A stretch of DNA of 64,000 nucleotides from Methanobacteriota archaeon (GTDB lineage: Archaea; Thermoplasmatota; Thermoplasmata; SG8-5; DAIRED01). Of this stretch, positions 1 to 26,451 are shown in pieces. The stretch spans positions 64,001 to 128,000 of the forward strand of contig JAZDNO010000004.1 in the NCBI GenBank assembly GCA_043799545.1, written 5' to 3'. The stretch's first letter is position 1. Each line of letters starts with the position of its first letter. Below the pieces are notes generated by a model. It was not told the origin of the DNA. It saw only the letters and a program-made list of their open reading frames with translations, and did not search any database. A program made the position numbers and the translations under genes.

Positions 1-363
1 CCGCTTCTTCGCAACGTCCAGCAGCTCTGTGCCGACCCCCATTCGCCTGCGCGACTCGTCGACTGAGATGTCCCAGACGCGGATGCTGTTGTTCCAAGCC
101 TGGTGCTCGATTTGGATCAGCCCGGCCTCGGTTCCGCCGGCGAACGCCGCATAGACCTCTGTCTCGCCTTTGTATGGCTTCAGCAGGGGCTCGTTGAGGT
201 CCTTGACGAACGTCTCTGGAAATGGCTCCTTCCGCAGGGCGATTTCCCACCCGTCGCTGGTGCGCTTCAAACTCAGCCGGTACGTTCCGTCCGACGTGTA
301 GGCGAAGTCGTCCATCTTCCCCGCCAGCTCGCCCTTGTCAAGCTTCCTGATTTCGATCTTCAA
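1..363 (-). CDS. GNAT-family N-acetyltransferase (streptothricin acetyltransferase-like), 3' end runs off the window
   Basis: Not in the ORF track; translated by hand from a TTG at 363 overlapping the TGA of the upstream ATPase: [26 protein letters not shown]...[26 protein letters not shown], with acetyl-CoA motif A (V..xRRxGxGxxL). Confidence 0.8.
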
Positions 364-1466
364 GCAATGTCCTCGCCGTACTTCCTCACGAGCTTGCGGA
401 GCATCTCCGCGGAGAACGCCTCCTCCTCGAAGGGCTGCTTGCGCATGCGGTGCGGCAGCGCCATCTCCGCGGCCAGTACGACGTCCTCGACGGTCGTCTC
501 GTCGCGGCCCTCGAGCGCCGCGTTCGTCCTCGCCGAGCGCTCGATGATGATGTCCCCGCGATGGCCGTCGATGTTGAAGTCTATCCCCAGGCGCGTGATG
601 AGCTCGACGATTTTCATGGAAGTCTTTATCTTCGGGAGCCTCTCCATGGCCTCCAGGATGCGTTTGCGCAGCTCGTTCTGTGCGGGCTCCCACTTCTCCC
701 TGAATAAGACCGGGTCCTCCTGAAACTCGCGCGAGCGCTTGATTATCTCGACGCGCTTGTCAACTTCCTTGATGCCCTTGACCTCGGCCTGCAGCGCCAG
801 CCTGTCCAGGAGCTGCGGTCGTAGCTCCCCCTCCTCGGGGTTCATCGAGCCGATTATTACGAACTGAGACGGGTAGTTCAGGGAAATCCCCTCGCGCTCT
901 ATCGTCACCATCCCCATGGCTGCGGCATCCAGCAGGACGTCGACGACGTTGTCCTCCAGGAGGTTTATCTCGTCCACGTAGAGGATGTTGCGGTGCGCCT
1001 CCGCGAGGATTCCCGGCTCGAACGCCTCCACCCCCTCTTTGAGGACGCGCTCGATGTCTATCGCGCCGACGAGGCGGTCCTCCGTGATGTTGAGGGGCAG
1101 GTCGCACACGTTCATGTCCGTTTTCGTGGCCTTGAGCTCCCCCTTCTCGTGCTTCAGCTTGCACTCGTTGCAGAACTTCTCCGGCTTGTCGGTGGGGCGG
1201 CAGTTGAACTTGCAGCCCGTCACGTCCATCTTCGGAAGTATGTCCTGGAGCGCGCGCACCGCGATGGATTTGCCAGTCCCCTTCTCGCCCCTTATCAGCA
1301 CCCCCCCTATCTGGGGATTGACGACGTTGAGCAGCAGCGCCCTCTTGAGAACTTCCTGGCCGACTATGGCCGTGAACGGATAAATCCTCTCGGGCGAATG
1401 GCGCTTCCTCGAGCCCTGAACGGCCGGCGATGGTGTCTTTTTCTCCGTCCTCTTTTCGGGAGGCAC
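360..1466 (-). CDS. ChlI/BchI-like (Mg-chelatase subunit I family) AAA+ ATPase, catalytically intact
   Basis: PFTAIVGQ start, Walker A GEKGTGKS, Cys insert GCKFNC...CNEC, TEDRLVG, Walker [10 protein letters not shown], sensor/Arg-finger [22 protein letters not shown]. Confidence 0.92.
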
Positions 1467-1469
1467 GCC

Positions 1470-4331
1470 TCACCCCTTCCTGCCGTCGATGGACTCGCGC
1501 TCGCGCTGCTTCACGAGCTTGCGGAGCATCTCCTCGCTGAACTCCTCCTCCTCGTACGGGCGCCTGCGCATCCTGTGCGGCAAAGCCATCTCCGAGACGA
1601 CGACGATGTCCTCAGCCGCCACCTCAAGCCGTCCCTCGAATGCCGCGTTCGCCCGCGCCGCCCTCTCGATTATGATGTCCGCCCTGTGGCCGTCCACGTT
1701 GAAGTCTATGCACACCTGCGCTATCAAATCGTAGACGTGCTGAGGCGTCCTGACGTTGGGGAGTATCTCCCTCGCCTTCGTGATGCGCTCGCGCAGCTCC
1801 TGCCGCACTGGCTCGTGCTTGGCGCGGAATCCCTCCGGGTCGACTGTGAACTCCTCCCTCCGGCGCACGATGTCTATGCGAGACGTGACGTCCTGGATGC
1901 CGATGACGTCAGTTTGGAGCGCGATGCGGTCCAGTATCTGCGGCCTCAGCTCTCCTTCCTCTGGGTTCATCGAGCCGACGATGATGAACCTGGCCGGGTG
2001 CGAGAGGGAAATGCCCTCGCGCTCGACGTTCACGTTCCCGGACGAGGCCGAATCCAGCAATATGTCAACGATATAGTCGTCCAGCAAGTTTATCTCGTCC
2101 ACGTAAAGGATGCCTCGGTGCGCCTCCGCTAGGATTCCTGGCTCGAACGATTTTGTGCCTTCTGACAGAATCTTCTCTATGTCTATCGAACCGACGAGGC
2201 GGTCCTCCGTGATGTTCAGCGGCAGGTCAACGACCTGGACCTGGCGCGTGAAAGTCTCCAGCTTGCCTGCTTCGTAGCGAGCCGCGCACTCGGGGCAGAG
2301 CTTGTCCACCTCCTTGGGGTCGCAGATGAACTTGCATCCAGTCACTTCGATGTCCGGCAAGACCTCCGCCAAGCCGCGTACGCCGACGGACTTGCCCGTC
2401 CCCTTCTGTCCGCGTATGAGCACCCCTCCGACTTCCGGGTAGATGGCGTTGAGAATCATCGCCTTCTTCATCTTCTCCTGGCCGACGAGCGCGACGAACG
2501 GGAACAGCACGCGCTTCTGCTTGGTCTGCTCCACCATGCGGCCCGCCGCGGCCTTGAGCTTGAGCTTCTCCTCCTCCTCCAGGCGCTGGCGTATCTGGTT
2601 CTCCAGCTCCTGCTTCAGGTGCGAAAGCTCGCCTTCCTTCATGCGCAATTTTTCACGCGACTCGTCGAAGAGGTTGCGCTGGATTTCGAGGTCGGAGCGG
2701 GCCTTGATGAGGTCCTGCTCCTTCATCCTGATCTTTTCCTCCTCCTCCATCATGAACTCCTCGGTCTTGCGCTCGACCTCGGTCTGGACCAGGCTCTCCA
2801 TCTCCTGCTCCTTCATGTGGAGCTTCTCCTCCTCGGCTGCCAGGGCCTCGTTTTTCATTTCCAGCTCCGCCTGGATGGCAGAGACTTCTTGCTCCTTGAG
2901 GCGGACCTTCTCCTCCTCCTGCGCTATCTGCTCGGTCATGCTCTCGAGGCGCTGCTGGATTTCCTTCAGTTCCTCGTCCTTGAGGCGGAGGCGCTCCTCC
3001 TCCTCCTCGCGCATCTTCTCCATCTCCGTCTCCATGTCCGTCTTTATCTGGTCGATGTCGTTCTCCTTGTCCAGGTAAAGCTCGAAGTGCGCGCGGCCCG
3101 GGTCCTCGAGGACTGCCGGGTAGTTCATGTAGGCGATGAAGTCCAGGATTATCATCGTGGCGAGCACGATGATCATCACGATGCCGCCCAGGAGGTCGAT
3201 GGTTTCCGAACCGCCTTGCTGGTAAAACGCGGTGATGAATATCCCAATGAGCATGGCGAACGAGACCCAGATGCTGGCGAAGACGTTCAGCTTCGTGTCC
3301 CACGTGTGAAGAAGGGCGTCGACCGCGGTGATGATGACGGTTATCAGCAGCAGGTTGACCGTAATCGCCCCGCCCAGCATCGGCGCGAAGATCAGCATTG
3401 ACCGGGGTATCTTGTTGGAAATGTTGAACGTGAAGAGTATGAACTCGATGAACATGAACAGGGCGAGGAACGTGAAGAAGGTCACGGTGATGTTGCTGAC
3501 CCGGAAGTAGTTGAGGAACCCCTCGCTCTTCTCCTCCTCCAGCATCTCCTTAATCTTGCGCTTGCGCTCGTCCTTGCGCAGCTTGGCCCTCTCGCTCTCG
3601 TCCAGGTCATCGTCTTCCTCGAAATCGTCCCCGTCTTCCGCCGCTTCGTCCTCAGCGGTTTCGTCGCCCTCGCCATCGTCTTGCGGTTCGGCCTTCTTCT
3701 TGCCGAAACCGAAGCGTTTCTTCTTCGGAGCCTCCTCCTCGGCGACCTCCTCTTCCGCCGGTTCCCCGGATTCTGCATCATCCTCTTCCACGGCAATGTC
3801 TGGGGTTTCAGCGGCTTGTTCTTCTTCCCCGGCCGCCTTCTTCTTGCCGAAACCGAAGCGCTTTTTCTTCGGGGCTTCCGCCTCCTCAACGGTTTCAGGC
3901 TCCGCTTCAGGTTCTGCGGGGGCCTCTGGTGTCTTTGGTTTTTCCTCGGCTTTCGGCTCATCCTCTGGCACAGGCCCTGGTTTTCCCCCTCCCACGGAAC
4001 CCGCGTCCCAGCTCTCCTCAGTTTTCTTGATGGGATTGAAGCAGTTGGGGCAGATCTCGGCTATCTCGTCCACCCCTTTGCCGCATGAAGGGCATCTGAC
4101 GAAGTGCTCGAGGCTGGCGCTGCAGGATGGGCAGATCTTTGCCCCCGAGCCGACCAGCGTGCCGCACTCTGGGCAGCTCATCTGATCGCCGGGCACCTCG
4201 GCTGTAGGCACCCGCTCATGCGGCGCCTCCTGCGTTGCTGCGTCTTCAGGCAAATCTGCGCCGCAATTGGTGCACTGCGCCGCCTGGTCGTCGTAGTTGA
4301 CGGTTCCGCAATTCGAGCAGTAGCGCTCCAC
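1470..4331 (-). CDS. Membrane-anchored ChlI-like AAA+ ATPase: three double-Zn-ribbon units, acidic linker, 4 TM helices, long coiled coil, C-terminal intact AAA+ module
   Basis: CxxC pairs at N-terminus; two KKKRFGFGKKK repeats in an E/D-rich linker; four hydrophobic segments (~3120-3500); E/K/Q heptads (~2550-3060); [33 protein letters not shown] start. Confidence 0.88.
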   Translation of the reverse strand: MERYCSNCGTVNYDDQAAQCTNCGADLPEDAATQEAPHERVPTAEVPGDQMSCPECGTLVGSGAKICPSCSASLEHFVRCPSCGKGVDEIAEICPNCFNPIKKTEESWDAGSVGGGKPGPVPEDEPKAEEKPKTPEAPAEPEAEPETVEEAEAPKKKRFGFGKKKAAGEEEQAAETPDIAVEEDDAESGEPAEEEVAEEEAPKKKRFGFGKKKAEPQDDGEGDETAEDEAAEDGDDFEEDDDLDESERAKLRKDERKRKIKEMLEEEKSEGFLNYFRVSNITVTFFTFLALFMFIEFILFTFNISNKIPRSMLIFAPMLGGAITVNLLLITVIITAVDALLHTWDTKLNVFASIWVSFAMLIGIFITAFYQQGGSETIDLLGGIVMIIVLATMIILDFIAYMNYPAVLEDPGRAHFELYLDKENDIDQIKTDMETEMEKMREEEEERLRLKDEELKEIQQRLESMTEQIAQEEEKVRLKEQEVSAIQAELEMKNEALAAEEEKLHMKEQEMESLVQTEVERKTEEFMMEEEEKIRMKEQDLIKARSDLEIQRNLFDESREKLRMKEGELSHLKQELENQIRQRLEEEEKLKLKAAAGRMVEQTKQKRVLFPFVALVGQEKMKKAMILNAIYPEVGGVLIRGQKGTGKSVGVRGLAEVLPDIEVTGCKFICDPKEVDKLCPECAARYEAGKLETFTRQVQVVDLPLNITEDRLVGSIDIEKILSEGTKSFEPGILAEAHRGILYVDEINLLDDYIVDILLDSASSGNVNVEREGISLSHPARFIIVGSMNPEEGELRPQILDRIALQTDVIGIQDVTSRIDIVRRREEFTVDPEGFRAKHEPVRQELRERITKAREILPNVRTPQHVYDLIAQVCIDFNVDGHRADIIIERAARANAAFEGRLEVAAEDIVVVSEMALPHRMRRRPYEEEEFSEEMLRKLVKQRERESIDGRKG

Positions 4332-4333
4332 CC

Positions 4334-4999
4334 CTAATCTGCCTCCTCAGCGCCCTTGCGCTCTATCTTCTCGATCTTTCTGGCCAGCCTGTTGCTGAGG
4401 ACGCGCTTGTACAAAGTGAACCCGGCCGGTATGGCTGAGGCGGTCAGGGAGACCGCCACGAGCGCGTACACCTGGTACTCCTCTTGGATTATCGGCGGTG
4501 GCCTGTACTCGGAGGAGAACGGCCCCTCGTAGTATGCGGTCCTCCACGTATTGTCCGCGGCAAGGACCTTGATGGTCTTGCCCTGGAACTGCTCGAAGAC
4601 GAAGATTATTCGGATGGTGTTGTTCTTCACGTAATCGCCAACGAAGCGGTCGACTATGCATCTCCCCGCCTGGAGGGTGCCTCCCGCGTTGTCAACGAAT
4701 CTGTCGTTGACGTCGTAGGTCGTGTTCGTGTCGTGCTGGAAAAAGGTGACGTTCGCGACCTCGTCGCCGCTCCCGTCGATGACAAGCACATTCACGTTGT
4801 ATATGTCCAGCCCGCCGTTCTGGTCGTAAACCGTGACGTTGACTTCAACGTAATCCCCGTTCAATCCGACCCGGATGTCGCTGAACGTCGGGGGGATCCC
4901 CCAGACCCCCACGCCGCTCTGCGCTTTGGCGCCCTGAATGGCCAAGGCTAGAACGAACGTTGCGACTAGCGCCACGGCGAACATGCTCCTGGCCTTCAT
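4334..4999 (-). CDS. Secreted protein with signal peptide, beta-rich (Ig-like) domain and C-terminal membrane anchor
   Basis: N-terminal hydrophobic stretch ending AKA-Q; beta-strand pattern; C-terminal YALVAVSLTASAIPAGFTLY followed by basic tail. Confidence 0.75.
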   Translation of the reverse strand: MKARSMFAVALVATFVLALAIQGAKAQSGVGVWGIPPTFSDIRVGLNGDYVEVNVTVYDQNGGLDIYNVNVLVIDGSGDEVANVTFFQHDTNTTYDVNDRFVDNAGGTLQAGRCIVDRFVGDYVKNNTIRIIFVFEQFQGKTIKVLAADNTWRTAYYEGPFSSEYRPPPIIQEEYQVYALVAVSLTASAIPAGFTLYKRVLSNRLARKIEKIERKGAEEAD

Positions 5000-5004: not shown

Positions 5005-6432
5005 CTATCCCCTCTTTCCTCGCCCCTTTTTCTTTTGCTTGCGCTGCTCTTTCTCCTTCTTTTTAAGGTTCGAGTAGTATGCCATGAAGCCGACGATCAC
5101 TGCCACGACCGCGACGATGGCGATGATGGCCATCCAATTGATTTCCACAGGCTCCTTGTAATCGGACGGCACTCTGTCAACTGTGACGGCGGTCGAGAAC
5201 AACTCCTCGCGCGCGGCCCCGCCGTCCGACCAGCCAAGAGTGTATATTATGCGCGCGGTGAACGCGGTCGTCGATGCCTTCTCCGCCTTGATTGTGATGC
5301 GAAGGTGCCTCTCAGTGACGTTCGAAAGGCTCAGCACGATGCTAGCCGGATCCACGGCCACGTCGTCGATTGTGGCGGAGGTAATCGTGATGTTGTCACC
5401 CACCAGCGAGAGCGTCGCGCTCCCCTCTCCAGTGAAGTACGCGTCTACGGTCGTGCTGTTGCCGAACTTCAGGAGCGGAACGTTTTTCACATACTGGACT
5501 ATGACCTTTCCAAAGTCCAGGAGGGTGTACCCGGTCCTCTGGACGTTGACGTTTATCGAGAATTGCTGCTCGAATGCGGGAACGAGCGCGACTGTCGCGG
5601 GGGTGATGAGGTACTTCGGCTCTCCGCGCACCGTCCCCGTGACCTTGAGCTCGCGCGGGCTCCATGCGGGGGCGGCGAAATCGATGAAATAGAATCGCTC
5701 CTCGCCGGGGTGGAAGATGGGGTAGTTGTCGCCGGCCTTCAGGGGCTCTGACTCGTTGTTCTTGTCCCACTTGAACCTGGTCGAGAAGTATTCGCCGAAG
5801 GGTTCAAAGCGAAGCGACAGCGTCAGCGGGACGTTCTCCACGTTGTTGGCCCTGACGTAGAAGCTCTGGTCCGCCGGGTCGAAGGACGAGACGCTCTGGG
5901 TCTGGAACGGCGACACGGCGAAGAAAAAGTCCGGCCTTGACAGGGAGAATCCGGATTCCGGCACCTCCACGACCACGTCGCCTGCCCAATCGAGAGCGCC
6001 GTCGACGTAGACTGTGAAGTTCCAGACGCCCGGAGTCGCCCTCGCGGACATTCCGACCGCGAATTTGTATATGTTGTTTGCTCCTATCGAGCACTGGCTG
6101 AGATTTACATACATCCCGTACTTCGCGTCCGACCAGACGCTGTTGACGCATGCCCAAGAATAGTAGTTGGTATCATCCTGGACGGCGGGAGCGGTCGCTC
6201 CCGGGTGGCATACGATGGTCACGTTCGCATGCGGCGCATCCAGCGAAACATCGATGGAGTGTATCACGCCAGCGACCATGATTGGAACTGTTCCGGCCGA
6301 AAACCTGAGGCTCTCGCCGGGTATGTAGAAGCTGACGGAGCTTACGGCGGCGGACGCGGGACCGGCCAATGGGGTCAGGGCCAAGAATCCGAGGGCCAGC
6401 AACACCAACACCGAGAGCGCTCGCATTCTCAT
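5005..6432 (-). CDS. Cell-surface protein with signal peptide, Ig-like beta-sandwich domains, C-terminal TM helix and Lys-rich tail
   Basis: ORF-track start 6456; ATG at 6432 follows GGAGGGG; signal peptide to ASA-A; WMAIIAIVAVVAVIVGFMAYY + KKKEKEQRKQKKK. Confidence 0.78.
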   Translation of the reverse strand: MRMRALSVLVLLALGFLALTPLAGPASAAVSSVSFYIPGESLRFSAGTVPIMVAGVIHSIDVSLDAPHANVTIVCHPGATAPAVQDDTNYYSWACVNSVWSDAKYGMYVNLSQCSIGANNIYKFAVGMSARATPGVWNFTVYVDGALDWAGDVVVEVPESGFSLSRPDFFFAVSPFQTQSVSSFDPADQSFYVRANNVENVPLTLSLRFEPFGEYFSTRFKWDKNNESEPLKAGDNYPIFHPGEERFYFIDFAAPAWSPRELKVTGTVRGEPKYLITPATVALVPAFEQQFSINVNVQRTGYTLLDFGKVIVQYVKNVPLLKFGNSTTVDAYFTGEGSATLSLVGDNITITSATIDDVAVDPASIVLSLSNVTERHLRITIKAEKASTTAFTARIIYTLGWSDGGAAREELFSTAVTVDRVPSDYKEPVEINWMAIIAIVAVVAVIVGFMAYYSNLKKKEKEQRKQKKKGRGKRG

Positions 6433-6469
6433 AGTTCGCCCCTCCAAAGCATACATGTCGTTAGAAGGC

Positions 6470-6497: not shown

Positions 6498-6558
6498 GGT
6501 TCTGTTGCGTTTAAGGGTGCTATCACCCGCCGCTAGTGCCCTGTTGCACGGCGGGTGC
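6498..6558 (+). repeat. Left transposon end: terminal IR plus subterminal TGTTGC-Nx-GGGTG boxes
   Basis: TGTTGCGTTTAAGGGTG (6503-6519), TGTTGCACGGCGGGTGC (6542-6558), inverted CACCCGCC (6524-6531). Confidence 0.85.
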
Positions 6559-6632
6559 TGACCTCGATTAAAGGCATCCGAAAGTGGCTTATACGCGCTC
6601 CACGATGCCCGCAGCATAGGAGAGTGCTAGGG

Positions 6633-6941
6633 GTGCGATTGAGTATATTGGCCGTCGGAGTTGTAATCTTAGTGCTGGGTATGGTCGTCGCCTTATTGGG
6701 AATACAGGCCGACCTTGATAACCCCTATGTCACTATGCCAACCAGCAGTGGATATTCATACTACTACCCGCCAACGAGCATCGGTATGGCTGTGTTTGGC
6801 GCTTTAATGATGGCGGCGGGCACATTTTTCATGGGGTTGGGTGCTGGCATCCCCTCCCCCGTCAAATATACTTGTCCCAATTGTGGGGCAAAAGATTCGG
6901 CCAGTAATTTTTGTAAAGGCTGTGGTATGAAGTTGCGATAA
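6633..6941 (+). CDS. Small 2-TM membrane protein with C-terminal zinc ribbon (transposon cargo)
   Basis: Two hydrophobic helices then CPNCG...FCKGCG; start uncertain (track 6555, GTG at 6633 preferred). Confidence 0.65.
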   Translation: MRLSILAVGVVILVLGMVVALLGIQADLDNPYVTMPTSSGYSYYYPPTSIGMAVFGALMMAAGTFFMGLGAGIPSPVKYTCPNCGAKDSASNFCKGCGMKLR

Positions 6942-6984
6942 ACGGCCAGTAATACTTTGGGTGCAAGGCGCCCAATTTGCAATA

Positions 6985-7374
6985 CTATTTATTTTGTTTC
7001 TGTGCTTGCACCTTTGTGTAAATTTCGACTATCTGGTTGAAATTTCGTCTGTTCTTTAATTGTGCAACGATTTCATCTGTCTTTTTCAAATCACCAGATA
7101 GAATGCCTTGCTGGACCATTGTAACACAAACTTTCCACTCATTACAGTTCATCCATTCCTTTTGAAAAAACCACATCCAGAATAATGAAACCGCAATGCC
7201 TATCAAACCTAGCATCCACATGGGGAAATCCTGTAAGCATGCGATAACTGAGCCCACAAATAGCGATATTGATACGAGGAGTCGCTGATTGACTATGCCC
7301 AGAATTGAAACAGCGCTGGCGTGCTCACATTCCAGATACGACAACCAATCCTGCAAGGTTAATTTTTCTTCCAT
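6985..7374 (-). CDS. Small 2-TM membrane protein of unknown function (cargo)
   Basis: LLVSISLFVGSVIACL and WMLGLIGIAVSLFWMWFF helices; start at 7374 or 7389 avoids overlap with the upstream gene. Confidence 0.6.
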   Translation of the reverse strand: MEEKLTLQDWLSYLECEHASAVSILGIVNQRLLVSISLFVGSVIACLQDFPMWMLGLIGIAVSLFWMWFFQKEWMNCNEWKVCVTMVQQGILSGDLKKTDEIVAQLKNRRNFNQIVEIYTKVQAQKQNK

Positions 7375-7399
7375 CGCGGTCAAACCCATTTTATAGGCA

Positions 7400-7636
7400 T
7401 CATTTTTTCTTTTGATTGTATTGCTCTTCCCGAGCCAACCGTTCATAAGCCGCTCTTTTTCGCTCGGAAATTATTAGACAACTGGCTTCGACACTACCGC
7501 ACATCCTATTTGCCATCGAATTCCAGACACCATGATATACTTCAAGCCATGTGTATTTTGCCAATAAATATTTCAAATCTTTTATCATTTTATCGGCGAT
7601 TTCTCGGTCTTTTTGTTCAAAGGCTTTAATTTCCAT
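7400..7636 (-). CDS. Small helical hypothetical protein (cargo)
   Basis: RBS GAGGTGA precedes ATG at 7636, overlapping the stop of the upstream gene. Confidence 0.55.
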   Translation of the reverse strand: MEIKAFEQKDREIADKMIKDLKYLLAKYTWLEVYHGVWNSMANRMCGSVEASCLIISERKRAAYERLAREEQYNQKKK

Positions 7637-8354
7637 AATTTTCACCTCGCCCATAACGCCTTCTGACATCGTTTCCATCTAATTCAGAGCCACAATTGGA
7701 GCATTTATAATTCTTTCCCAGCCATTTAAGGTCGCCAACGCTGCAAACATGGCATTTTGGGCTACTCCCTTCCAATGGGTCTTTTAACTCACTACCGACC
7801 TCCGCCCCCCTTGACGGTAGCGCTTTTCTTTCGACTGTACCGCCCCTTACCATATATCCTTCTTCGACCCCACCGAGTTTACCCATTAACTCTGCGGGTT
7901 TTCTCCCCGATGGCATTTCAAGCTTTAATTCATGTGACCGTTTTACTTTGCTATAAAACGTTTTCCAGCATCGTAATACGTGCTTGTTTTGATAATCCTG
8001 CAAGTCATCGAATGTTGGCTCAAAATACTCATTATCGTCATTACATACAGTCAGGTATATCCCATACGAATGAAGATATTCCAGTACCTTACTATAAAAT
8101 TCTTCCTCATCCTCCACATGCTTTAATAGGTCTGGTTCGAGGAGCGTATAATACATGTATTTCGATAGTATGGCCTCACGAATCCCCCTTAATCCATTAT
8201 ATGCCCTATTATGGTCTTTAGTATTATCGGGGTCCCAACCGATTCCCCGAATCATGACCTCTAATGTGAACTTGTTCTCTGGCCCCCGGTCCCTAATCCA
8301 CCTCAGGATTTGGCGTCTAACTTTTCCCATCGCTATGGGTGTTTTTTTATTCAT
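7626..8354 (-). CDS. Hypothetical protein with putative N-terminal winged helix and C-terminal zinc ribbon (cargo)
   Basis: RBS GAGGTGG before ATG 8354; N-terminal RRQILRWIRDRG...F(T)LEVMIRGIG pattern; CHVC...YKCSNCG. Confidence 0.65.
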   Translation of the reverse strand: MNKKTPIAMGKVRRQILRWIRDRGPENKFTLEVMIRGIGWDPDNTKDHNRAYNGLRGIREAILSKYMYYTLLEPDLLKHVEDEEEFYSKVLEYLHSYGIYLTVCNDDNEYFEPTFDDLQDYQNKHVLRCWKTFYSKVKRSHELKLEMPSGRKPAELMGKLGGVEEGYMVRGGTVERKALPSRGAEVGSELKDPLEGSSPKCHVCSVGDLKWLGKNYKCSNCGSELDGNDVRRRYGRGENYGN

Positions 8355-8398
8355 TTTTACCACCTCTTCTTCCCACGGGGGCGTAGCAGATGATGCAA

Positions 8399-9385
8399 TT
8401 ACTCTTCTAGCGCCTCCCTAATTTGCTGGCATTTCTCCTCGATAGCATCTACCATTTTTATAATTTGTTGTTTTTGCTTGGGTATCAATTTTACGATGCG
8501 TTTATGATTGACTAATAAGATACGCTCACAACTTTTCTGAAACTCTTCGATAAACATTTGGTTTGAATCGTGCACTCTTGGTACATCTATGGCGGGTGTC
8601 TCGATTCCTTTTCTTTGGCTTACGCGAATATCCTCCACCCGCTCTTTTAATTCCCTATCTGAATAATCGTATTTCTTTACTTCATTGAGAACTACAATTT
8701 GTGTTTTTTCATCCTCGACTTCAGACAATATTTTTAATTTCTCAGGATTTAATGTTGATGTTTTACTAACAAATTCCTTTTGTACAGATTCCGGCGCTTT
8801 TTTCATTAGAGTAACCACATCGCCGACCTCGCTGGTTTGTATTTCGCCCTTTTCTACTCTCTTAAGAAATGATTCTCTTAGATTTTTTTCGGGTATTCGT
8901 GAGACTTCGTACAGTGATGATGTAGGCACCGAAGACGGCGTCTTCGCTTCATCCCTAATTTCTCTTGCTTTTAATATGTGCTGGATAGCGGTTTTATCGG
9001 AGTACCCCAGGGCATCTGCGAGGTCACCTTGATTTTTATATATGCCCGCCACCCATATTTCCTGTATCGCATGCTCCCTTTCAGTCGATGATAAATCTTG
9101 GCGATGTAAATTTTCTATAAGGGATTCCACCAGAACCTGGTTATCCGAAACGTTTTTTATTACTGCCGGGATTGTAGCTTTATTAGCTAGCTTACTGGCC
9201 CTCCAACGACGCTCACCACATATAATTTCGTACCTATTTCCTTTTTTTCTAACGACAATTGGTTGTAATATTCCATGAATTTTAATCGAATTGGCGAGTT
9301 CTTTAATATTCTCTTTTGTGAACTTCTCTCTCGGTTGCATCGGATTCGGCGTTAGCATCTCAATATCTAGTTCTTGATACTCCAT
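8399..9385 (-). CDS. parB: ParB/Spo0J-family protein (CTPase domain + HTH), no ParA in window
   Basis: PNPMQPR, LANSIKIHGILQPIVVR, ICGERRWRA, ENLHRQDL, then HTH (QGDLADALGYS). Confidence 0.9.
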   Translation of the reverse strand: MEYQELDIEMLTPNPMQPREKFTKENIKELANSIKIHGILQPIVVRKKGNRYEIICGERRWRASKLANKATIPAVIKNVSDNQVLVESLIENLHRQDLSSTEREHAIQEIWVAGIYKNQGDLADALGYSDKTAIQHILKAREIRDEAKTPSSVPTSSLYEVSRIPEKNLRESFLKRVEKGEIQTSEVGDVVTLMKKAPESVQKEFVSKTSTLNPEKLKILSEVEDEKTQIVVLNEVKKYDYSDRELKERVEDIRVSQRKGIETPAIDVPRVHDSNQMFIEEFQKSCERILLVNHKRIVKLIPKQKQQIIKMVDAIEEKCQQIREALEE

Positions 9386-9619
9386 GTTAAATTCCCCCGG
9401 ATACTCTGTTTAACGTACATCATCATACTCGTATAAATAACTACATTTCACCTTTCGACTACCCCTATTCGAATTTTACGAAGAGACGAACATCAATTTA
9501 GGAAGCATTCAGGGCTTTTATCACATTATTTTTCAAGGGAAACCGTAGTCAATCCCCCGATAAATATATATATTGCCTGTTTTTTCAGTAAATTATTTAT
9601 AGTAATGCTGCTTTAACCG

Positions 9620-10168
9620 ATGGTAGTAACTATGGAGTTCGTTCCCATGTTAATAAACCAAGAAGAAGGCTGGCGTTTGCCCGAATTATACGATACCATG
9701 ACACCAACTGAAAAGGCATCAGCTATTAAATCTTGCGTTTTAACTTTTCTTAATAACAATGGACCGGCTCCAAAATCAGTAATCGGAAAAGCGATAGGCA
9801 CGACTCATGAAGACAGCTTAAAAAGGGCTTTGGATTACTTGGTTCATACTCGTCAAATTTATTCAGAGAAATGGGGTTCGCGAAATCCAGTATATTTCCC
9901 GAATGGTTGTTTGGGGCACCCCCTCTATCAGGGGCGTATAATTTGTGGTCGGAAGGAATACACAATTAGAACATATATAGACCGAGTCACTGGTAGAAAT
10001 TTAACAATAACTGAGTATGAAAAAGATTATTCGGGTAAACAAGACCCCAAAGGAGGCATTAGAATAGACGCCGTGGATTTAGACGCCATTATTAGAGAGT
10101 TAGTGAGGATAAATGACTCATTGCGCCAGAGTGTTGAAATTAACGACAGAGGTCTAATATCAAGGTGA
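9620..10168 (+). CDS. Winged-helix protein fused to a PUR/PC4-like (DUF3276-like) nucleic-acid-binding domain (cargo)
   Basis: VLTFLNNNGPAPKSVIGKAIG...LKRALDYL wHTH pattern; C-terminal EYTIRTYIDRVTGRNLTITEYE...GIRIDAVDLDAIIREL resembles a PUR repeat. By-eye call. Confidence 0.55.
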   Translation: MVVTMEFVPMLINQEEGWRLPELYDTMTPTEKASAIKSCVLTFLNNNGPAPKSVIGKAIGTTHEDSLKRALDYLVHTRQIYSEKWGSRNPVYFPNGCLGHPLYQGRIICGRKEYTIRTYIDRVTGRNLTITEYEKDYSGKQDPKGGIRIDAVDLDAIIRELVRINDSLRQSVEINDRGLISR

Positions 10169-10172
10169 GAAA

Positions 10173-11504
10173 ATGAACACGCAACTATCAATGTATGTGG
10201 AGGAAGAGGACGCGCAAAAGGCTGTATGTAGATTCGGGAATCTTAAAATTCCCCGAGGATTATTTTCAATGCCGACAATAAGTCCAGGTATTCAGAAAAA
10301 TTTAGATGTGGAAGCATTGATGGCTAACATTAGCGGTGGCTCCTTCCCACATGCAATTACGCCACATCTCAGCACAAAACAGAGATATATTGTGAAATTA
10401 ATGCCAATGCTCCCCTCTGGCAAAGGCGTTATACATCCGTTTGTTGTGCCAGACCCGGAATATGAGGCTCTTTCCGTCAATTGTCTTGCGAGATTGAATT
10501 ATATGCAATTTGAAAATCCACCCCCCACAGTGCGTATGATTATGGATTCGGGGCTGACCGATGACCCGGATACAGATAGATTTAATGTAACAACAAGATG
10601 GCAAACCATTAGGCAGCGCTATGGCCTTGCTCCTTTGTTAGATTGGTCGTTAAATCTTCACGACTCCATCAATTCCGATTTGTATCTTGCACCGACCCCG
10701 ATAATGCGGGCCGATGAAAAACTTAAAAGCATTGAAGAGGCTTTTACCAGTGGGTATTTCCTTCTCTCAAATGCCGTCAGTTCGGCTCGATTCGCGTTGA
10801 ATGGGATTCACACGTTGCTCCATATCGAAATTTTTTCCGATACGGATGAAGCTGACGCTGCTCGAAACAAGATACTTACTGAGTTCGAGTCTTGGAAATC
10901 CGAGAAACAGCAATATCGGGGTTCAATAGTAGGCATAAAGCTCTATGACCCAAACAACTTATTCGGAGAAGCTGACTCGGGTTCAGTAAGGCGCAGATTA
11001 TTCAGCGAATTTGTAACAGAGCTTTCATCAAAGGTTCGAGGAGCCGATGGTTTTGTCATTGGTTATAATTTTGCCAATCTATCTCTTGGAATTTTGGATA
11101 GCGGCGCAGATTTAGCTACATTCAAAGTGGCTGGGGGAATGCGTATCGATGTGCCAATTAAATCAAGCAAGGGGAAGCGTGGTAAACGAAGGATTCCTTC
11201 CGTATTCGACGGAAGCACACTTTCCGAGGTGGGAAGCGACATCATCAAACAAACTTACAATAAATATGGTTCATTCCCTGTGCCGGCGTGTATGCAACCG
11301 AAGCCATATTGGGACGAAAATTATAAGGAGGCGTCGATATACGCGAGAAGAACCCGTTGTGCCTCATTGATTGCAGTTGGTGAAGAATATCGAGCAGCGG
11401 CGCTCGATAATGCAATCCCGTTGAAAGATTCCTTACGAAATCGAATTATGCAAAGTGAGGCGAGACAAGAATTGATTGATTTGTGTCCAACAATAAACGG
11501 TTAA
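10173..11504 (+). CDS. Divergent TIM-barrel protein resembling tRNA-guanine transglycosylase (TGT/DpdA) or beta/sce7725-type families (cargo)
   Basis: RBS AGGTGA; N-terminal RFGNLKIPRGLFSMP resembles TGT RxGxLxTPxGxIxTP; GADL near the last barrel strand; no GxDxFD Asp or CxCxxC site. Confidence 0.45.
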   Translation: MNTQLSMYVEEEDAQKAVCRFGNLKIPRGLFSMPTISPGIQKNLDVEALMANISGGSFPHAITPHLSTKQRYIVKLMPMLPSGKGVIHPFVVPDPEYEALSVNCLARLNYMQFENPPPTVRMIMDSGLTDDPDTDRFNVTTRWQTIRQRYGLAPLLDWSLNLHDSINSDLYLAPTPIMRADEKLKSIEEAFTSGYFLLSNAVSSARFALNGIHTLLHIEIFSDTDEADAARNKILTEFESWKSEKQQYRGSIVGIKLYDPNNLFGEADSGSVRRRLFSEFVTELSSKVRGADGFVIGYNFANLSLGILDSGADLATFKVAGGMRIDVPIKSSKGKRGKRRIPSVFDGSTLSEVGSDIIKQTYNKYGSFPVPACMQPKPYWDENYKEASIYARRTRCASLIAVGEEYRAAALDNAIPLKDSLRNRIMQSEARQELIDLCPTING

Positions 11505-11644
11505 TACAAATATATATTGACTTCACCCCGATGTCATAATCGCTGCCAGCTCATTTGCCTATACCGGGCCTTTCGACCCAGATTAATGTTGACATCAAAG
11601 TTGAACTCCTTCTCTATTCTCTGGGCGGTGTGAAAAATAATAAA

Positions 11645-11809
11645 TCATGCCTTACGAACGACAGCGACTATACTCTTACCCTCGTTACGGATGAGCCAGT
11701 TTACCTCATCTCCTGCCCTCAAGTTAAGGGATTCGACTACGGCCTCGGGAATAGTGGTTCGTAACGAGGGACTGGTTGTATTTGCTTTTGAAATCTTGGT
11801 ATTAGGCAT
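11645..11809 (-). CDS. AbrB/MazE/SpoVT-family DNA-binding protein (54 aa), divergent from the transposase
   Basis: Not in the ORF track; hand translation MPNTKISKANTTSPSLRTTIPEAVVESLNLRAGDEVNWLIRNEGKSIVAVVRKA* with the TIPxxVxExLxLxxGDxVxW signature. Confidence 0.8.
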   Translation of the reverse strand: MPNTKISKANTTSPSLRTTIPEAVVESLNLRAGDEVNWLIRNEGKSIVAVVRKA

Positions 11810-11840
11810 GGATACAGGATATGCCTCTGGCCGTATTTAT

Positions 11841-11907
11841 AGTTACCTATATACTGATAATCGTAGTTACCATAACCTTTATATCCTCCCTTGCTATATA
11901 GGTAACT
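11841..11907. promoter_or_regulatory. Divergent abrB/transposase promoter with 13-bp perfect inverted repeat (putative operator)
   Basis: AGTTACCTATATA (11841-11853) and TATATAGGTAACT (11895-11907) bracket a central TAGTTACCA and a CTTTATAT box. Confidence 0.65.
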
Positions 11908-14513: not shown

Positions 14514-14651
14514 TTATTCTTCGTAGATGATTAAATCCTGATTATATTGTGCATCTCTCATTGTATAGCATTTTAATCCTTCGCGCATGTATGAGTTCAA
14601 GTTTTTTCCACCACATGGCCCAGCATTTAAACTCTTTATTCTACCTACCAT
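14514..14651 (-). CDS. Possible 45-aa peptide immediately upstream of the kinase
   Basis: GGTGA RBS before ATG 14651 (MVGRIKSLNAGPCGGKNLNSYMREGLKCYTMRDAQYNQDLIIYEE*), 22 nt gap to the kinase start. Confidence 0.3.
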   Translation of the reverse strand: MVGRIKSLNAGPCGGKNLNSYMREGLKCYTMRDAQYNQDLIIYEE

Positions 14652-14770
14652 CTTAATCACCAACGCATCCCATCCGACATGCAGTTCAGGATTAGACAAC
14701 TAGTAAATAAATCTAGCGACAACGAATATATACTGATAGTGGTGGCAGTATAATCGGTTGGCTCAGATTG

Positions 14771-14830
14771 GCACCCACCGTGCAACACCCCGTTTAGATG
14801 CAACAAAACACCCGCCTACGCAACAGAACC
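14771..14830 (-). repeat. Right transposon end: terminal IR plus subterminal boxes
   Basis: Reverse complement reads GGTTCTGTTGCGTAGGCGGGTGTTTTGTTGCATCTAAACGGGGTGTTGCACGGTGGGTGC: three TGTTGC...GGGTG units; the inner one matches the left 6542-6558 box at 16/17. Confidence 0.85.
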
Positions 14831-15784
14831 GCTATTAAACCCCTTCTGGTGCTGGAGGGCGAAATCCACGACCTCCGTCACGTCGTCCATCGTGGCCCAG
14901 CTCCTTCCGTCGTAGGTGGCGTTCGCGATGGCCGCCTCGCGCAGGTTTGCGACGGCCCTCTCGTCGGCTCCGACCCTCCGTCCGACGCGCCCGATTGCCT
15001 GCACGACCTTTTGGGGGACATCCGCGCGCCCGATGAGTTTCCGCGCCGCCGCGAGCTTGCCCCTGACGATGGCGCTCTCCTTCTCGTGATGGCCCGCAAA
15101 CTCGGCCGGTCCCGCCTTGTACGCCTCCACCCTCCTAACTATCTCGAGGCGCTCCTCGATGTCGCTCAGCGAGCGGGCCGAGGCCCGCAAAACGAACCGC
15201 CGCCTCAGATCTTCCGGGAGCTCGCCCTCGTCGTCGTTCATCGTCGCGATGAGCGTTATCGCCGTCGGCCACGCGCCGTTGGCTTCGACCTTGCGGTTCT
15301 CCGTTGCATCCAGGACGAACTTCAAAATGTCCTCCGAAAACAGGTTCGCACGTTCCATTAGGGCGAAACCGCGGTTCGCCTTCGACAGCAGCCCCGGTCT
15401 GGGGGGGTTGCCCTTCCCGCCCCGGAGCTTCTCGATGGTCGCGGATATCGGAATCTCGACGAACGGCATCCGAGCCCTGACGCGGCTCTTGGGGTTGCTA
15501 GCGGCCTTGCAGGCAGGGCACCTCTCGCGGGCTGTGGGTATGCAGCTGACGGGGCAGCCTTCCGCGACGTCCATCTCAGGCAGCAGCGCGGCAAGCCCCC
15601 TCGCGGCGGTCCTCTTGCCCGTGTCCCTCTCGCCCGACAGGAGGAGGCTGGTAATCCTCGGGTTCACTACAGAAAGGAGCAGCCCGCGCTTGAGGGCGTT
15701 CTGGCCGACGACCCCCGTGAACGGGAAAGGCGGGTCGCCCGCCGAGCCTGGTTTGCGCCTGGATTTCGATGCCTCGTCCGCCAT
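14816..15784 (-). CDS. Degenerate ChlI-like AAA+ (pseudo-ATPase); last 4 codons and stop donated by the transposon IR
   Basis: PFPFTGVVGQ, GERDTGKRT (altered Walker A), FALMERANL replaces LYVDEINL, Cys insert GCPVSC...CPAC kept. Confidence 0.82.
   Translation of the reverse strand: MADEASKSRRKPGSAGDPPFPFTGVVGQNALKRGLLLSVVNPRITSLLLSGERDTGKRTAARGLAALLPEMDVAEGCPVSCIPTARERCPACKAASNPKSRVRARMPFVEIPISATIEKLRGGKGNPPRPGLLSKANRGFALMERANLFSEDILKFVLDATENRKVEANGAWPTAITLIATMNDDEGELPEDLRRRFVLRASARSLSDIEERLEIVRRVEAYKAGPAEFAGHHEKESAIVRGKLAAARKLIGRADVPQKVVQAIGRVGRRVGADERAVANLREAAIANATYDGRSWATMDDVTEVVDFALQHQKGFNSGSVA
14831..14838 (+). repeat. Right target-site duplication GCTATTAA
   Basis: Exact match to 6490-6497. 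Confidence 0.95.
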
Positions 15785-23607: not shown

Positions 23608-23688
23608 TTCAATCCCGCCTTTCAATTCCACAATAAATCTACGGATATTATGGTTGCGCTCGCGCAACCGATGTCAACCCGCCGTGGC

Positions 23689-26451
23689 TCAGCCACCGTT
23701 CTGCGCCACGAGCCCGCGAAGCGACGCCTCCGCCTCGGCCTTCTCGCCTAGCTCCGTTCCGTACAGGGGCAGGACCAGCTTGACCGCGTTCAGGATGTCC
23801 ACGTCGTCCACCCGTCCCTCGCCGCGCAGCGCGGCCAAGACCCGTGCAACGTTCTGTATTCCCAGCTCCGCGGTGTTTCCACCAGCGCCCAGCTCGGCGC
23901 ACATCCTCGCGGTCATGTCGAGCTGGCTCTCGCTAAGGGTCGAGCGCGCTAGCGCCTTGCGGGCGGATTCGAGCTGCTCCAGCGTCGCCGCCTTCTCCGC
24001 CTGGCTGACCTTGGCGAAGCTCTCCGGCGATTCGGAGAAGACCCGCGCGAACCTCTCGGCCTTCACTGAGATGCGCAGCGCATCCAGCTCGTCGTACTTT
24101 ACTAGAGCGGACATGTGCTCCAGCAGCATCGGGTGCACCTCGCCGTCGGGGCTTCCCAGCGTGCCTATGATTGTGAACCTGCACGGCACGTCGATGTCCG
24201 AGTCCTCGCCCTCGATGAAATTCCGTCCGGTGGCCAGCACCTCGGCGATGGACTCCGCCGCCTCGCTGGGAAGCTCGTCCACGCTCTCCACGAAGACCAC
24301 GCCGCGGTGAGCCCTGGTGAGCAGGTTCGGCGTCAGCATGTAGTGCACGAATACCCGTCCCTTGAGCCTGTCCCGCGTGGCGGTGTGCGGGACATTTATC
24401 ACTGGCATCTTGAGCTTCACTCGTTCCATCTCTCCCGAGTCGGCTTTTATCCTGCAATAGTTGCAATAAGCCTCTGGGTCGTCCGGGTCGCAGAGGAACC
24501 TGCAGCCCTTGACGGTATCGACCTCGAACCCCATGTCCTGGACGTACCTGAGGGCGTTCCGCACGGCCTCCGTGGAAAATCCGGAGAGCATCAGCCCCTT
24601 CACCAGCTCCGGCGAGGCGAAGGCCAGGAGGAGCTTCTCCTTCAGCACCTCGTTCTCCGCAACGGAGCGCGCGACGTTCATGAACTGCGCCGCCTGGCCT
24701 CCAGTCCCGTCCAGCTCCCAGAGGGGTTTGAGGGCCACCAGCGCGTTCGCGATGTCCAGGTCGTCGACCTGGGAGCGGATGCGTTTCGCCGCGAAGGTCT
24801 TGGCGAGCTTGTTGACCTTGCTGATGAAGTCCGGGTTAGCCGAATACCTCGAGGCTATGGACCAGACAACCTCCTCGGAGTATGCGCCAACCTTCATCCC
24901 GGGCACCATCTTCCGCGCCTTGATGACCTGGAAGATGGACTCCTTGCGCTGCCTGTCGAGCTGGCTCTCGAAGCGCGCCGGGTCGACGTCGTAGCCTTTG
25001 CGGTACGTCAGGCTCCTGGCGCTGGAGTAGAGGTCGTCGCCGGCCCCGATGTCCACCACGGCGTCCACGATGTCGGCGATGTGCGCAGACGGTTCGTAAC
25101 CTGGCTCCGCCACGGCCACCAGCGTGAAGCGCGCGGGGAACCTCATCCTGTTGCCGTCCTTCTCCAGCTCGTAGAAGCCCCGCTTCAGCAGCGCGGCCGT
25201 GGCTTTCAGGAGCTTGCCATCCATGTCGGGCAGCTTCCCGGCGTACAGCATGCCCCTGTGCGCCTTTCCGATGAGACCAGGCACGACGATGAACCTGATG
25301 TAAATCTCCCCCAGGAGGTCCCTCACGCTCCCGGATTTTGGCAGGGTCACGATGGGGTATGTCCAGAGCGACGTCGGTATCTCTTTCGACTTGTCTTCCA
25401 CGTGGCCGGAATCTATGTATCGCAGCCTGCACGCGTGGCAGTAGTCCTCCGGATGGTCGGGCGAGCAGCCCACGTCGCATCCGGCGTTCGCCTTTATCTC
25501 CAGCGAGAGGTCGTCCAGGTACTTCATCACCTCCGCAACTATTTTGGTGTCTGCCCCCCTGAGTAGTATCCCGCGTATGTCGGGGTTGACCAGCGCCCCC
25601 ATAAGCGCCTGCAGCACGTCGTCGAAATGCATGAGGTCGTCCACGCTCTTGGAGCCCACGGCCTCGTCCGGGGGAAGCGCGTGGTGGTAGAACCCGCCCG
25701 AGACGCTGGCAATCTCGGTCGCGAGCTGGCTTCCCTCCTCGCTCACGTCTATTATCAAGGCCGGCACGGCCGCCTCGTTTATGGCGAGCGACGTCCCTTT
25801 AATCTCCCCGCGCACGTCCGCGCCAGGAACGATCGGCACGTTCGCCGTCCCGTCCGTGACTATGACCAGGAGCGGTCGCGTGTCCTTCTCTATCCTGAGC
25901 TTTGACTGGAGCGCCTCGAGGCCCTTCCTCATGCCCGCCGCGAGCGGGGTCGTCCCGCCGTACTGGACCCTTTCGACGTAGGCCTGGCCCTTGTCGATGC
26001 TGGAGGTGAATGGAACGACCATGTCCGCCCCTCGTCCGAAGCAGGCGACGACGGAGATGCGGTCCCTCTTCTGGTAGGCGTCCATCATCAGCTCCCGCAG
26101 CGCCGCCTTGATTGCCATGATGCGCGAGTGCGTGACCATGGAGCTGCTGGTGTCCATGACGATGCAGATGAGGCTGGAAATCTTGCGCCTGCGCACCTTC
26201 TCCTTGTAGTCGCGCTTCTTGATTTCGAGTTTTCCGCCTGCTGAATGCATGATGGCGGATTTTATCGTCGGCAAAAGCGCTATGTCCTGGCAATCGGACG
26301 TCGAGGGGGTGCGGTAGCGGATGTAGCGCCCGATGCGCCCCACGGTCATGATGTCAGTGCGCCTCCCGGCCCGCACTATGCCAGTGACGACGCGCTTGTT
26401 CTTCTTGTGGAGCAGCCCCCCCATTACCTTCTTGAGTTCCCCCTTGCTCAT
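23689..26451 (-). CDS. ChlD-related protein with N-terminal vWA (intact MIDAS) followed by two degenerate AAA+ modules
   Basis: GRYIRYR...DIALLPTIKSA and DTSSSM, GGTTPL, VTDG (vWA/MIDAS); two C-terminal modules with LVNPDIRGILL / FASPELVKGLML and Cys inserts but no GxxxxGKS or DE motifs. Confidence 0.85.
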   Translation of the reverse strand: MSKGELKKVMGGLLHKKNKRVVTGIVRAGRRTDIMTVGRIGRYIRYRTPSTSDCQDIALLPTIKSAIMHSAGGKLEIKKRDYKEKVRRRKISSLICIVMDTSSSMVTHSRIMAIKAALRELMMDAYQKRDRISVVACFGRGADMVVPFTSSIDKGQAYVERVQYGGTTPLAAGMRKGLEALQSKLRIEKDTRPLLVIVTDGTANVPIVPGADVRGEIKGTSLAINEAAVPALIIDVSEEGSQLATEIASVSGGFYHHALPPDEAVGSKSVDDLMHFDDVLQALMGALVNPDIRGILLRGADTKIVAEVMKYLDDLSLEIKANAGCDVGCSPDHPEDYCHACRLRYIDSGHVEDKSKEIPTSLWTYPIVTLPKSGSVRDLLGEIYIRFIVVPGLIGKAHRGMLYAGKLPDMDGKLLKATAALLKRGFYELEKDGNRMRFPARFTLVAVAEPGYEPSAHIADIVDAVVDIGAGDDLYSSARSLTYRKGYDVDPARFESQLDRQRKESIFQVIKARKMVPGMKVGAYSEEVVWSIASRYSANPDFISKVNKLAKTFAAKRIRSQVDDLDIANALVALKPLWELDGTGGQAAQFMNVARSVAENEVLKEKLLLAFASPELVKGLMLSGFSTEAVRNALRYVQDMGFEVDTVKGCRFLCDPDDPEAYCNYCRIKADSGEMERVKLKMPVINVPHTATRDRLKGRVFVHYMLTPNLLTRAHRGVVFVESVDELPSEAAESIAEVLATGRNFIEGEDSDIDVPCRFTIIGTLGSPDGEVHPMLLEHMSALVKYDELDALRISVKAERFARVFSESPESFAKVSQAEKAATLEQLESARKALARSTLSESQLDMTARMCAELGAGGNTAELGIQNVARVLAALRGEGRVDDVDILNAVKLVLPLYGTELGEKAEAEASLRGLVAQNGG

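Follow-up and report, generated by a model that had tools for sequence, protein, structure and literature searches.

A conserved six-gene system of uncultured Thermoplasmata encodes chelatase-type AAA+ and vWA proteins together with anchored surface proteins, probably for a task at the cell surface

We analysed a stretch of 64,000 nucleotides (hereafter the window) from a Methanobacteriota archaeon placed by GTDB in the Thermoplasmata lineage SG8-5 (GenBank assembly GCA_043799545.1, contig JAZDNO010000004.1, positions 64,001 to 128,000). The window lies on contig 22 of a 2.06-Mb metagenome-assembled genome (MAG; G000), which is 94% complete, and the absences reported below depend on that completeness. 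The minus strand carries a six-gene system consisting of a 920-residue protein with a von Willebrand factor A (vWA) domain and two inactive AAA+ modules (vWA-AAA*-AAA*), a pseudo-ChlI, two small anchored surface proteins (p483 and p221), a ChlI with a transmembrane part (TM-ChlI) and a soluble ChlI paralogue (sChlI). Genes were called from the open reading frame listing, Pfam, NCBIfam and direct reading, and each gene listed by an earlier sequence-only reading of this DNA was recovered at its place on the minus strand.

The 920-residue protein (23689..26451, minus strand; Pfam and NCBIfam matches) opens with the segment that precedes vWA in ChlD, and this segment and the vWA domain together occupy about 25687-26169 (minus strand; Pfam/NCBIfam). 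Its metal-ion-dependent adhesion site (MIDAS) is intact (DTSSS, T167/T168 and D200), and D100, S102, S104, T167 and D200 as well as eight cysteines are invariant in 23 orthologues. In the two following modules on the same strand, AAA*1 (about 24727-25635) and AAA*2 (about 23692-24681), the Walker A, Walker B and arginine-finger positions are all replaced, and Walker A and B are lost in every orthologue. The pseudo-ChlI (322 residues; 14816..15784, minus strand), recognised by Pfam, NCBIfam and the motif columns, has lost the arginine finger and reads MERAN at Walker B versus VDEIN in ChlI. It keeps the Gly-Lys of the P-loop (GERDTGKR), given which nucleotide binding may still be possible.

The other two modules are intact. 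sChlI (368 residues; 360..1466, minus strand) has intact motifs and matches the cyanobacterial ChlI structure 8osf with E=2.4e-100. TM-ChlI (953 residues; 1470..4331, minus strand; Pfam, NCBIfam and direct reading) begins with three zinc ribbons (4032-4331) and an acidic/Lys-rich linker, continues with a domain of four transmembrane helices (4-TM; about 3117-3509, about residues 283-402) and a coiled coil of ~175 residues in six repeats of 28-30 residues (about 2532-3014, residues ~440-600), and ends in an active-type ChlI AAA+ domain with Walker A, Walker B and arginine finger intact (about 1497-2516), all on the minus strand. K647/S648 of Walker A, D745/E746 of Walker B and R796 are invariant in 32 orthologues, as is, across families, the motif DAxLHxWDRK in the cytoplasmic loop of the 4-TM domain; the database search returned 42 family clusters of TM-ChlI. 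The TIGR02030 scores of 405.7 bits for sChlI and 410 bits for TM-ChlI both lie below the 467-bit equivalog cut-off. Judged from its sequence, the motor is of true ChlI type. Two live modules, three dead ones and one MIDAS, the composition given by the sequence-only reading, recur in all orthologues examined by motif alignment, and a genome-wide search located only four ChlI-type genes in G000, all belonging to this system.

We placed 59 ChlI-type modules in a quick maximum-likelihood tree, which carries support from the Shimodaira-Hasegawa-like approximate likelihood-ratio test (SH-aLRT) only and for which a careful search is unfinished. sChlI and the AAA domain of TM-ChlI appear there as short-branched sister paralogues, with Methanolobus ChlI as the nearest outgroup among the sequences used; the pseudo-ChlI proteins form a separate long-branched clade, and AAA*1 and AAA*2 group together on long branches. 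Among the database matches, the full-length vWA-first architecture was found only in Thermoplasmata MAGs. The next-best matches to the vWA protein encode classical pairs of ChlI and an AAA-linker-vWA ChlD, the order seen for comparison in Methanolobus and in bacteria. The insert with four cysteines, considered as a special feature of the system, is carried by the classical ChlI/ChlD of methanogens, Bacillota and Desulfobacterota too; it is ancestral to the subfamily and no novelty. In the vWA protein of G029 (L014:8041-10623) the two dead modules are near-identical, with branch lengths of 0.22 and 0.13 and the same motif strings, which suggests a recent internal duplication or gene conversion. 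Some marine MAGs encode shorter vWA-first proteins of 548-570 residues with one AAA* module, followed by a pseudo-ChlI (L076:4312-5958; P0043, P0045, P0046).

The two small surface proteins, both encoded on the minus strand, have no Pfam hit. p483 (5005..6456) comprises a signal peptide, three immunoglobulin (Ig)-like β-sandwich domains, a C-terminal transmembrane helix and a variable polybasic cytoplasmic tail; its AlphaFold model has a predicted local distance difference test score (pLDDT) of 92, and the protein falls into 129 family clusters. p221 (4334..4999) has a signal peptide, one Ig-like domain, a stalk, a transmembrane helix and a cytoplasmic tail, and in its model (pLDDT 84.5) the transmembrane helix runs on into a cytoplasmic helix. 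The alignment revealed a conserved stalk (GPFSxEYxPPP), and the tail sequence RRxxSN(K/R)LA(R/K)xxE is conserved between families. Fold searches with p483 (Foldseek against the PDB) and p221 returned only generic Ig or β-sandwich folds (pilins, integrin legs, MG domains and GH2 Ig domains), and no function was assigned from them. The Atlas search placed p483 near archaeal surface proteins of the CARDB/NEW3/FixG_C type, which is a lead only, and the 4-TM domain near nothing by its features. Between TM4 and ChlI, the stalk of TM-ChlI is built from six repeats of ~28 residues with the core EEEEKLRMKEQE; the spacing of 28, 28, 30, 28 and 28 residues is kept across families, and several glutamates are invariant. 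This conservation exceeds the needs of a plain spacer.

Homologues of p483 and p221 also occur away from ChlI genes, in triads with a stand-alone 4-TM protein that are often preceded by a secreted protein of a family we call c5. The similarity of the stand-alone 4-TM proteins to the transmembrane domain of TM-ChlI (E=1e-15 to 1e-8) extends to the loop motif LH..D. Because such ChlI-less triads exist, p483, p221 and the 4-TM protein, with or without c5, constitute a module in its own right, and in the present system the motor ChlI has been fused onto the 4-TM subunit of this independent membrane module. The c5 proteins (352-1068 residues) have a signal peptide, no anchor and no Pfam match, and share a C-terminal motif resembling W..DIP...PEG.Y.G.I.Y.I.H. 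They are found before ChlI-less triads as well as inside the ChlI-linked operons of families f5, f15 and f18; the loci concerned are L133:7899-17873 (G043), L132:1-3277 (G064), L065:7536-13127 (G022) and L044:224-1363. In G000 itself, a search for c5-type proteins gave weak matches only (E about 1e-6), located on another contig, and a search with the short paralogue gave none. Two further observations touch this module. Contig 18 of G000 (L131:1-6340) carries a paralogue of the module without ChlI, made up of a p483-like gene at the contig end, a p221-like gene and a 343-residue 4-TM protein, together with a zinc-ribbon protein and two DUF835 proteins. In the database protein P0204 (1389 residues), a p483-type domain at the N-terminus is combined with a region of c5 type at the C-terminus.

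The six genes fall into two blocks. Block A is the vWA-AAA*-AAA* gene followed directly, often with an overlap, by pseudo-ChlI; this arrangement was found in every relative locus with downstream sequence (more than 17 loci), including those of MAGs labelled Methanomassiliicoccales UBA280, 'Ca. Proteinoplasmatales' SG8-5 and groundwater and sediment Thermoplasmata. Block B consists of p483, p221, TM-ChlI and sChlI, always in that order and with gaps or overlaps of a few bases; in every locus p221 lies immediately downstream of the p483 homologue. In two genomes of f2 (G002 and G005) all six genes make up one contiguous, partly overlapping operon, in which p483 and pseudo-ChlI are about 60-115 bp apart. 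G043 (f15) has a single-strand operon of ten genes, among them a second p483 and three additional genes for secreted proteins, and in G022 (f5), G029 (f12) and G064 (f18) the two blocks lie a few kb apart. In f3 and f4 the blocks are unlinked, and the neighbours are housekeeping genes for EF-2, the primase large subunit and an RNA methyltransferase. The gene fusion in TM-ChlI and the conserved adjacency are the strongest evidence available here for the motor and the surface proteins working together.

Co-occurrence was followed in two sets of genomes, all of them MAGs, and counts across related genomes are not independent of one another. For the first set, 41 relatives were searched genome-wide with the vWA protein, and their loci were then fetched and annotated: 22 have both the vWA gene and p483, five (all less than 80% complete) have the vWA gene only, none has p483 only and 14 have neither. 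The second set was an evenly drawn, class-wide sample of 401 Thermoplasmata genomes of at least 80% completeness, with thresholds of E<=1e-60 for the vWA-first protein and E<=1e-10 for the transmembrane and coiled-coil part of TM-ChlI. Each of the two was detected in 24 genomes and both together in 23, leaving one carrier of each alone and 376 genomes with neither. In one of the two single carriers the contig ends just after p483, and the other genome is 83% complete. In the patchy family f18, the same 4 of 33 genomes carry both the vWA-first protein and the transmembrane/coiled-coil domain. Despite the non-independence of the genomes, this distribution, taken together with the operon fusions of several families, makes a functional link likely. 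The sequence-only reading had made its interpretation depend on TM-ChlI, pseudo-ChlI, the vWA gene and the surface proteins occurring together in relatives, and for the first three and the two small anchored proteins this co-occurrence is strong. The system is single copy and present in every sampled genome of the order around SG8-5, and its divergence tracks taxonomy. The housekeeping neighbours and a family-level identity of 42-47% fit vertical inheritance. We conclude that the six-gene system is lineage-specific and vertically inherited, being confined to the SG8-5/'Ca. Proteinoplasmatales' order and a few other families of uncultured Thermoplasmata.

ChlI and ChlD normally drive a CobN/ChlH subunit, and the sequence-only reading had seen none within the 64 kb. 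This negative result extends to the genome: profile PF02514 (CobN/ChlH/HmuS-type) had no match in the whole of G000, while control genomes were positive, nor in any carrier of the system among the 41 relatives. CobN occurs in only 3 of the 41, and those three have a classical ChlI/ChlD and are without this system. A partner whose presence would track these genes was thus looked for in G000 and in every carrier and not encountered. HemB (PF00490), HemC (PF01379) and CbiX (PF01903) were not found in G000 by profile search, HemB was found in only one genus among the carriers, and the conserved neighbourhoods of the system contain no transporter or B12 gene. These results support the ChlI/ChlD-type genes as one conserved system without dependence on CobN/ChlH.

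Only in the present window is block A split, by two genes lying between the vWA gene and pseudo-ChlI on the minus strand. One encodes a canonical pyruvate phosphate dikinase (PPDK) with all three domains present (20821-23667), the other a 1618-residue surface protein with LamG, β-helix and OmpL47-barrel domains, a signal peptide and a C-terminal transmembrane helix (15882-20738). Downstream of sChlI begins a GNAT acetyltransferase gene (1..380, minus strand; Pfam PF00583), the rest of which is seen in L130. Neither PPDK nor the 1618-residue protein has a homologue in the 28 relative loci, and GNAT has none in the relatives' loci either; the same-genus genome G001 does have a homologue of the 1618-residue protein upstream of pseudo-ChlI. 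Because they are not conserved there, the three are local neighbours and not parts of the core. The sequence-only reading had included PPDK and GNAT, which stand beside the system in no other family; of the surface proteins it had assigned to the machine, p483 and p221 stay, being conserved and recurring in the ChlI-less triads, and the 1618-residue protein drops out as a genus-level companion. Given the homologue in G001, the rearrangement dates back at least to the genus. G000 has many large surface proteins, so the proximity of the 1618-residue protein to ChlI genes may be incidental. The cluster is flanked (window 27025-36670) by an 891-residue BNR/sialidase-like protein on the minus strand and a 2297-residue β-helix/FG-GAP protein on the plus strand.

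Between p483 and pseudo-ChlI lies an island of low GC content (6498..14830, about 8.3 kb), whose genes are spread over the two strands and which has the appearance of a mobile element. Its GC content in the profile is 0.40-0.47 versus about 0.60, and its ends are aligned, imperfect inverted repeats of about 62 bp (I4 and I6; 6498-6560 and 14770-14830), the right one overlapping the last codons of pseudo-ChlI. The island encodes a ParB_N protein (8399-9385), a DDE transposase of the IS240 type that bears a SWIM finger (11908-13095), a protein resembling kinases (13157-14491) and four further proteins without a significant family match. No tRNA gene flanks it, and PADLOC gave no hits in it.

With moderate confidence, we favour a non-chelatase AAA+/vWA machine that is functionally coupled to the surface-protein membrane module; each specific step proposed below is much less certain. 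The hetero-oligomeric ring, the role of the MIDAS, the metallation of surface proteins and the midasin-like organisation put forward by the sequence-only reading are hypothetical. By analogy with chelatases and MoxR proteins (PMC6604950, PMC9976466, PMC7159879, bioRxiv 10.64898/2026.10.09.757910), the two live ChlI proteins would form an ATP-hydrolysing ring, and the dead modules with the MIDAS vWA domain would form a ChlD-like adaptor layer gripping an acidic residue or peptide of a client. Our own proposal is that this client would be the membrane module, a complex of the 4-TM domain, p483 and p221 that secreted c5 proteins would join in some families. For the MIDAS, candidate ligands are the tail of p221, which is conserved and contains Glu, and the stalk repeats with their many Glu residues. 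Movements powered by ATP might then pass through the stalk and the 4-TM domain to the ectodomains and serve their assembly, remodelling or gating. Such mechanotransmission would resemble that of FtsEX or MacB and the action of MoxR-vWA chaperones like NorQ-NorD on a membrane client. A more specific picture, which we consider unlikely as it stands, sees in the system a new type of force generator that would act across the membrane at the expense of ATP. In it, a chelatase-type AAA+ double layer would be suspended by ~25-nm coiled-coil stalks from a 4-TM module to which the Ig-domain surface proteins would be attached. With it, wall-less or thin-walled Thermoplasmata could act from within the cell on adhesins or fibres at the surface and alter their conformation, their assembly or their position. 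In function it would resemble the inside-out activation of integrins or the internal motor of the Mycoplasma gliding legs, but its motor would be that of a chelatase.

Several observations weigh against the coupling of motor and surface module. In most f3 and f4 genomes the two blocks are found on separate contigs or at a distance of about 60 kb, so what links them is their co-occurrence in genomes that are related. The Ig folds of the ectodomains are generic; neither a conserved His/Cys site nor an informative structural match was found for them. DUF835/TPR proteins recur beside modules with ChlI and beside those without it, which is equally suggestive of signalling, and the direction of action could be inside-out or outside-in. 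Finally, the number of dead modules differs by lineage (two or three), as does the N-terminal zinc-ribbon region, which weakens any idea of a fixed ring stoichiometry. A six-membered ChlD-like ring made of two copies of three dead modules was considered and set aside as speculation, some lineages having just two.

If signals travelled inwards, the Ig complex and the 4-TM domain would sense a ligand or a contact, the stalk would relay it to the ChlI ring, and the ring, with the vWA protein, pseudo-ChlI and DUF835/TPR proteins, would act on a cytoplasmic target, the surface proteins being the input. We hold such an outside-in receptor to be rather unlikely. A long conserved stalk between a membrane domain and an output domain suits a receptor, and the 4-TM bundle resembles the membrane modules of GGDEF, kinase and AraC-type sensors, although with TM-scores of only 0.5-0.58 this four-helix-bundle likeness is weak evidence. 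DUF835-Zn-ribbon-TPR and Zn-ribbon/coiled-coil proteins accompany the system in f5, f12, f14 and f18 and also adjoin the ChlI-less triad on contig 18 of G000, and among the output domains listed for archaeal response regulators is DUF835, as an inactive KaiC (PMC5847659). However, G000 has 15 copies of DUF835 (one in the window at ~55750-56124), so that the adjacency is perhaps partly due to chance; in f1-f4 no DUF835 gene adjoins the system, and the core six genes are without a conserved cytoplasmic target. The remoter idea that blocks A and B work apart and occur together through shared ancestry alone would account for the unlinked blocks of f3 and f4 and draws on the kinship of the genomes counted. 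We find it highly improbable, because the vWA protein and pseudo-ChlI, which lack a functional ATPase site and an arginine finger, need a live partner, because at least four families (f2, f5, f15 and f18-adjacent) have the blocks united in one operon, and because of the exact coincidence of the two in f18.

A cryptic class I chelatase or dechelatase would insert metal into a salvaged tetrapyrrole or corrinoid, or remove it, through an unrecognised and perhaps membrane-associated H/N-type subunit. The close similarity of both live subunits to ChlI speaks for such an enzyme, as does the fact that class I motors are, as far as we know, familiar only from chelatases. We nevertheless judge it improbable, given the missing PF02514, HemB, HemC and CbiX matches and the neighbourhoods lacking transporter and B12 genes described above, and given that the ChlD-like partner is rearranged and fully dead. 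Conflict systems also combine MoxR/chelatase-clade AAA+ proteins with vWA adaptors, which are the core of the NTP-dependent ternary systems (Kaur et al. 2020; PMC7159879), and the motor and vWA protein could in principle control effectors upon infection; the variable secreted proteins embedded in the operons of some lineages would suit such a role. A defence function is distinctly improbable, however, as PADLOC gave no hit for the system proteins and Pfam scans revealed no effector, VMAP or protease domain, a dedicated VMAP profile search not having been made. Presence is single copy and order-wide, with housekeeping neighbours and divergence that tracks taxonomy, and no patchy strain-level presence in defence islands was seen; PMC7159879 describes no membrane form of the chelatase subclade. 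The machine coupled to the membrane module thus stays the reading we prefer, and the genes probably encode a chelatase-type motor with an undescribed job at the cell surface.

Parts of this system are already known, namely the ChlI, ChlD-type vWA and Ig-fold families and the principle of pairing a MoxR/chelatase-clade AAA+ protein with a MIDAS adaptor. The novelty lies in the dead ChlD-like chain, which is reversed and duplicated and comes with a separate pseudo-ChlI, in a ChlI that a repeat stalk connects to a 4-TM domain, in the obligatory association with a membrane/surface module not described before, and in the occurrence in genomes where tetrapyrrole synthesis genes were not found. No account of this arrangement turned up in the literature searched, papers on these lineages included, as the sequence-only reading had supposed, and the names that the proteins bear in the sources are just 'Mg-chelatase subunit ChlI/ChlD', 'VWA domain-containing protein' or 'ATP-binding protein'. 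To our knowledge, the motors of class I chelatases (ChlI/ChlD, CobS/CobT) have no known use other than driving the insertion of metals into tetrapyrroles. If our reading is confirmed, the chelatase motor would be a general-purpose remodelling engine like its MoxR cousins, and the 4-TM protein with two Ig-fold anchored proteins, with or without secreted partners, would be a new family of membrane modules that exists with and without a motor. It would also offer a handle on the cell-surface biology of abundant, uncultured, protein-degrading archaea of sediments and groundwater. The case also cautions against labelling such genes 'Mg-chelatase' or 'cobaltochelatase' in the reconstruction of B12 or haem metabolism from metagenomes.

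Several known machines share features with the system. The type VII ATP-binding cassette (ABC) systems FtsEX, MacB and LolCDE combine a cytoplasmic ATPase with a small helical membrane module and extracytoplasmic domains, and perform work outside the membrane without transporting a substrate. The likeness is architectural only, since the present system has no homology to an ABC ATPase or permease. It also differs from the Bat/aerotolerance MoxR operons in having no DUF58 protein and no transmembrane vWA protein; TPR proteins occur in some lineages only and carry DUF835. Midasin (Rea1) likewise assembles several AAA+ modules of the same broad clade, some of them inactive, with an acidic region and a MIDAS that grips the client. 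Whereas midasin is a eukaryotic ribosome-assembly factor with six modules in one giant chain and a C-terminal MIDAS, the archaeal system distributes five modules over four chains, varies by lineage, has an N-terminal MIDAS and is tethered to the membrane, and there is no specific homology beyond the clade.

The closest relatives by sequence are the class I chelatases (ChlI/BchI with ChlD/BchD, and the TIGR02442 'putative cobaltochelatase' of anaerobes), whose design combines a live ring with a less active or inactive partner bearing the vWA domain (PMC6604950; bioRxiv 10.64898/2026.10.09.757910). The system shares with them bona fide ChlI AAA+ domains with Walker A/B, arginine finger and sensor residues, a partner with the pre-vWA segment and MIDAS vWA of ChlD, and the anaerobe-type four-cysteine insert in all modules. 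Unlike in the chelatases, the vWA domain comes first and is followed by two tandem dead modules, pseudo-ChlI is a separate protein, and the ChlD order of AAA, acidic/Pro linker and vWA does not occur. CobN/ChlH and tetrapyrrole pathway genes were not found in the genome, one ChlI is fused to zinc ribbons, a 4-TM domain and a 175-residue repeat stalk, and Ig-fold surface proteins are obligatory companions. The MoxR-vWA pairs (NorQ-NorD, CbbQ-CbbO, RavA-ViaA and CoxD-CoxE) are similar in that an AAA+ protein of the same clade is encoded with a MIDAS vWA protein; they differ in that the ATPase here belongs to the chelatase subclade and not to MoxR proper, the five modules are spread over four chains and the motor is fused to a membrane domain. 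Within these pairs, AAA+ proteins with a helix-2 insert and MIDAS adaptors remodel a specific client, and NorQ-NorD acts on a membrane protein (PMC9976466; PMC7159879). In the archaeal system, the complex of p221, p483 and the 4-TM domain would be the candidate client, as synteny and gene fusion suggest.

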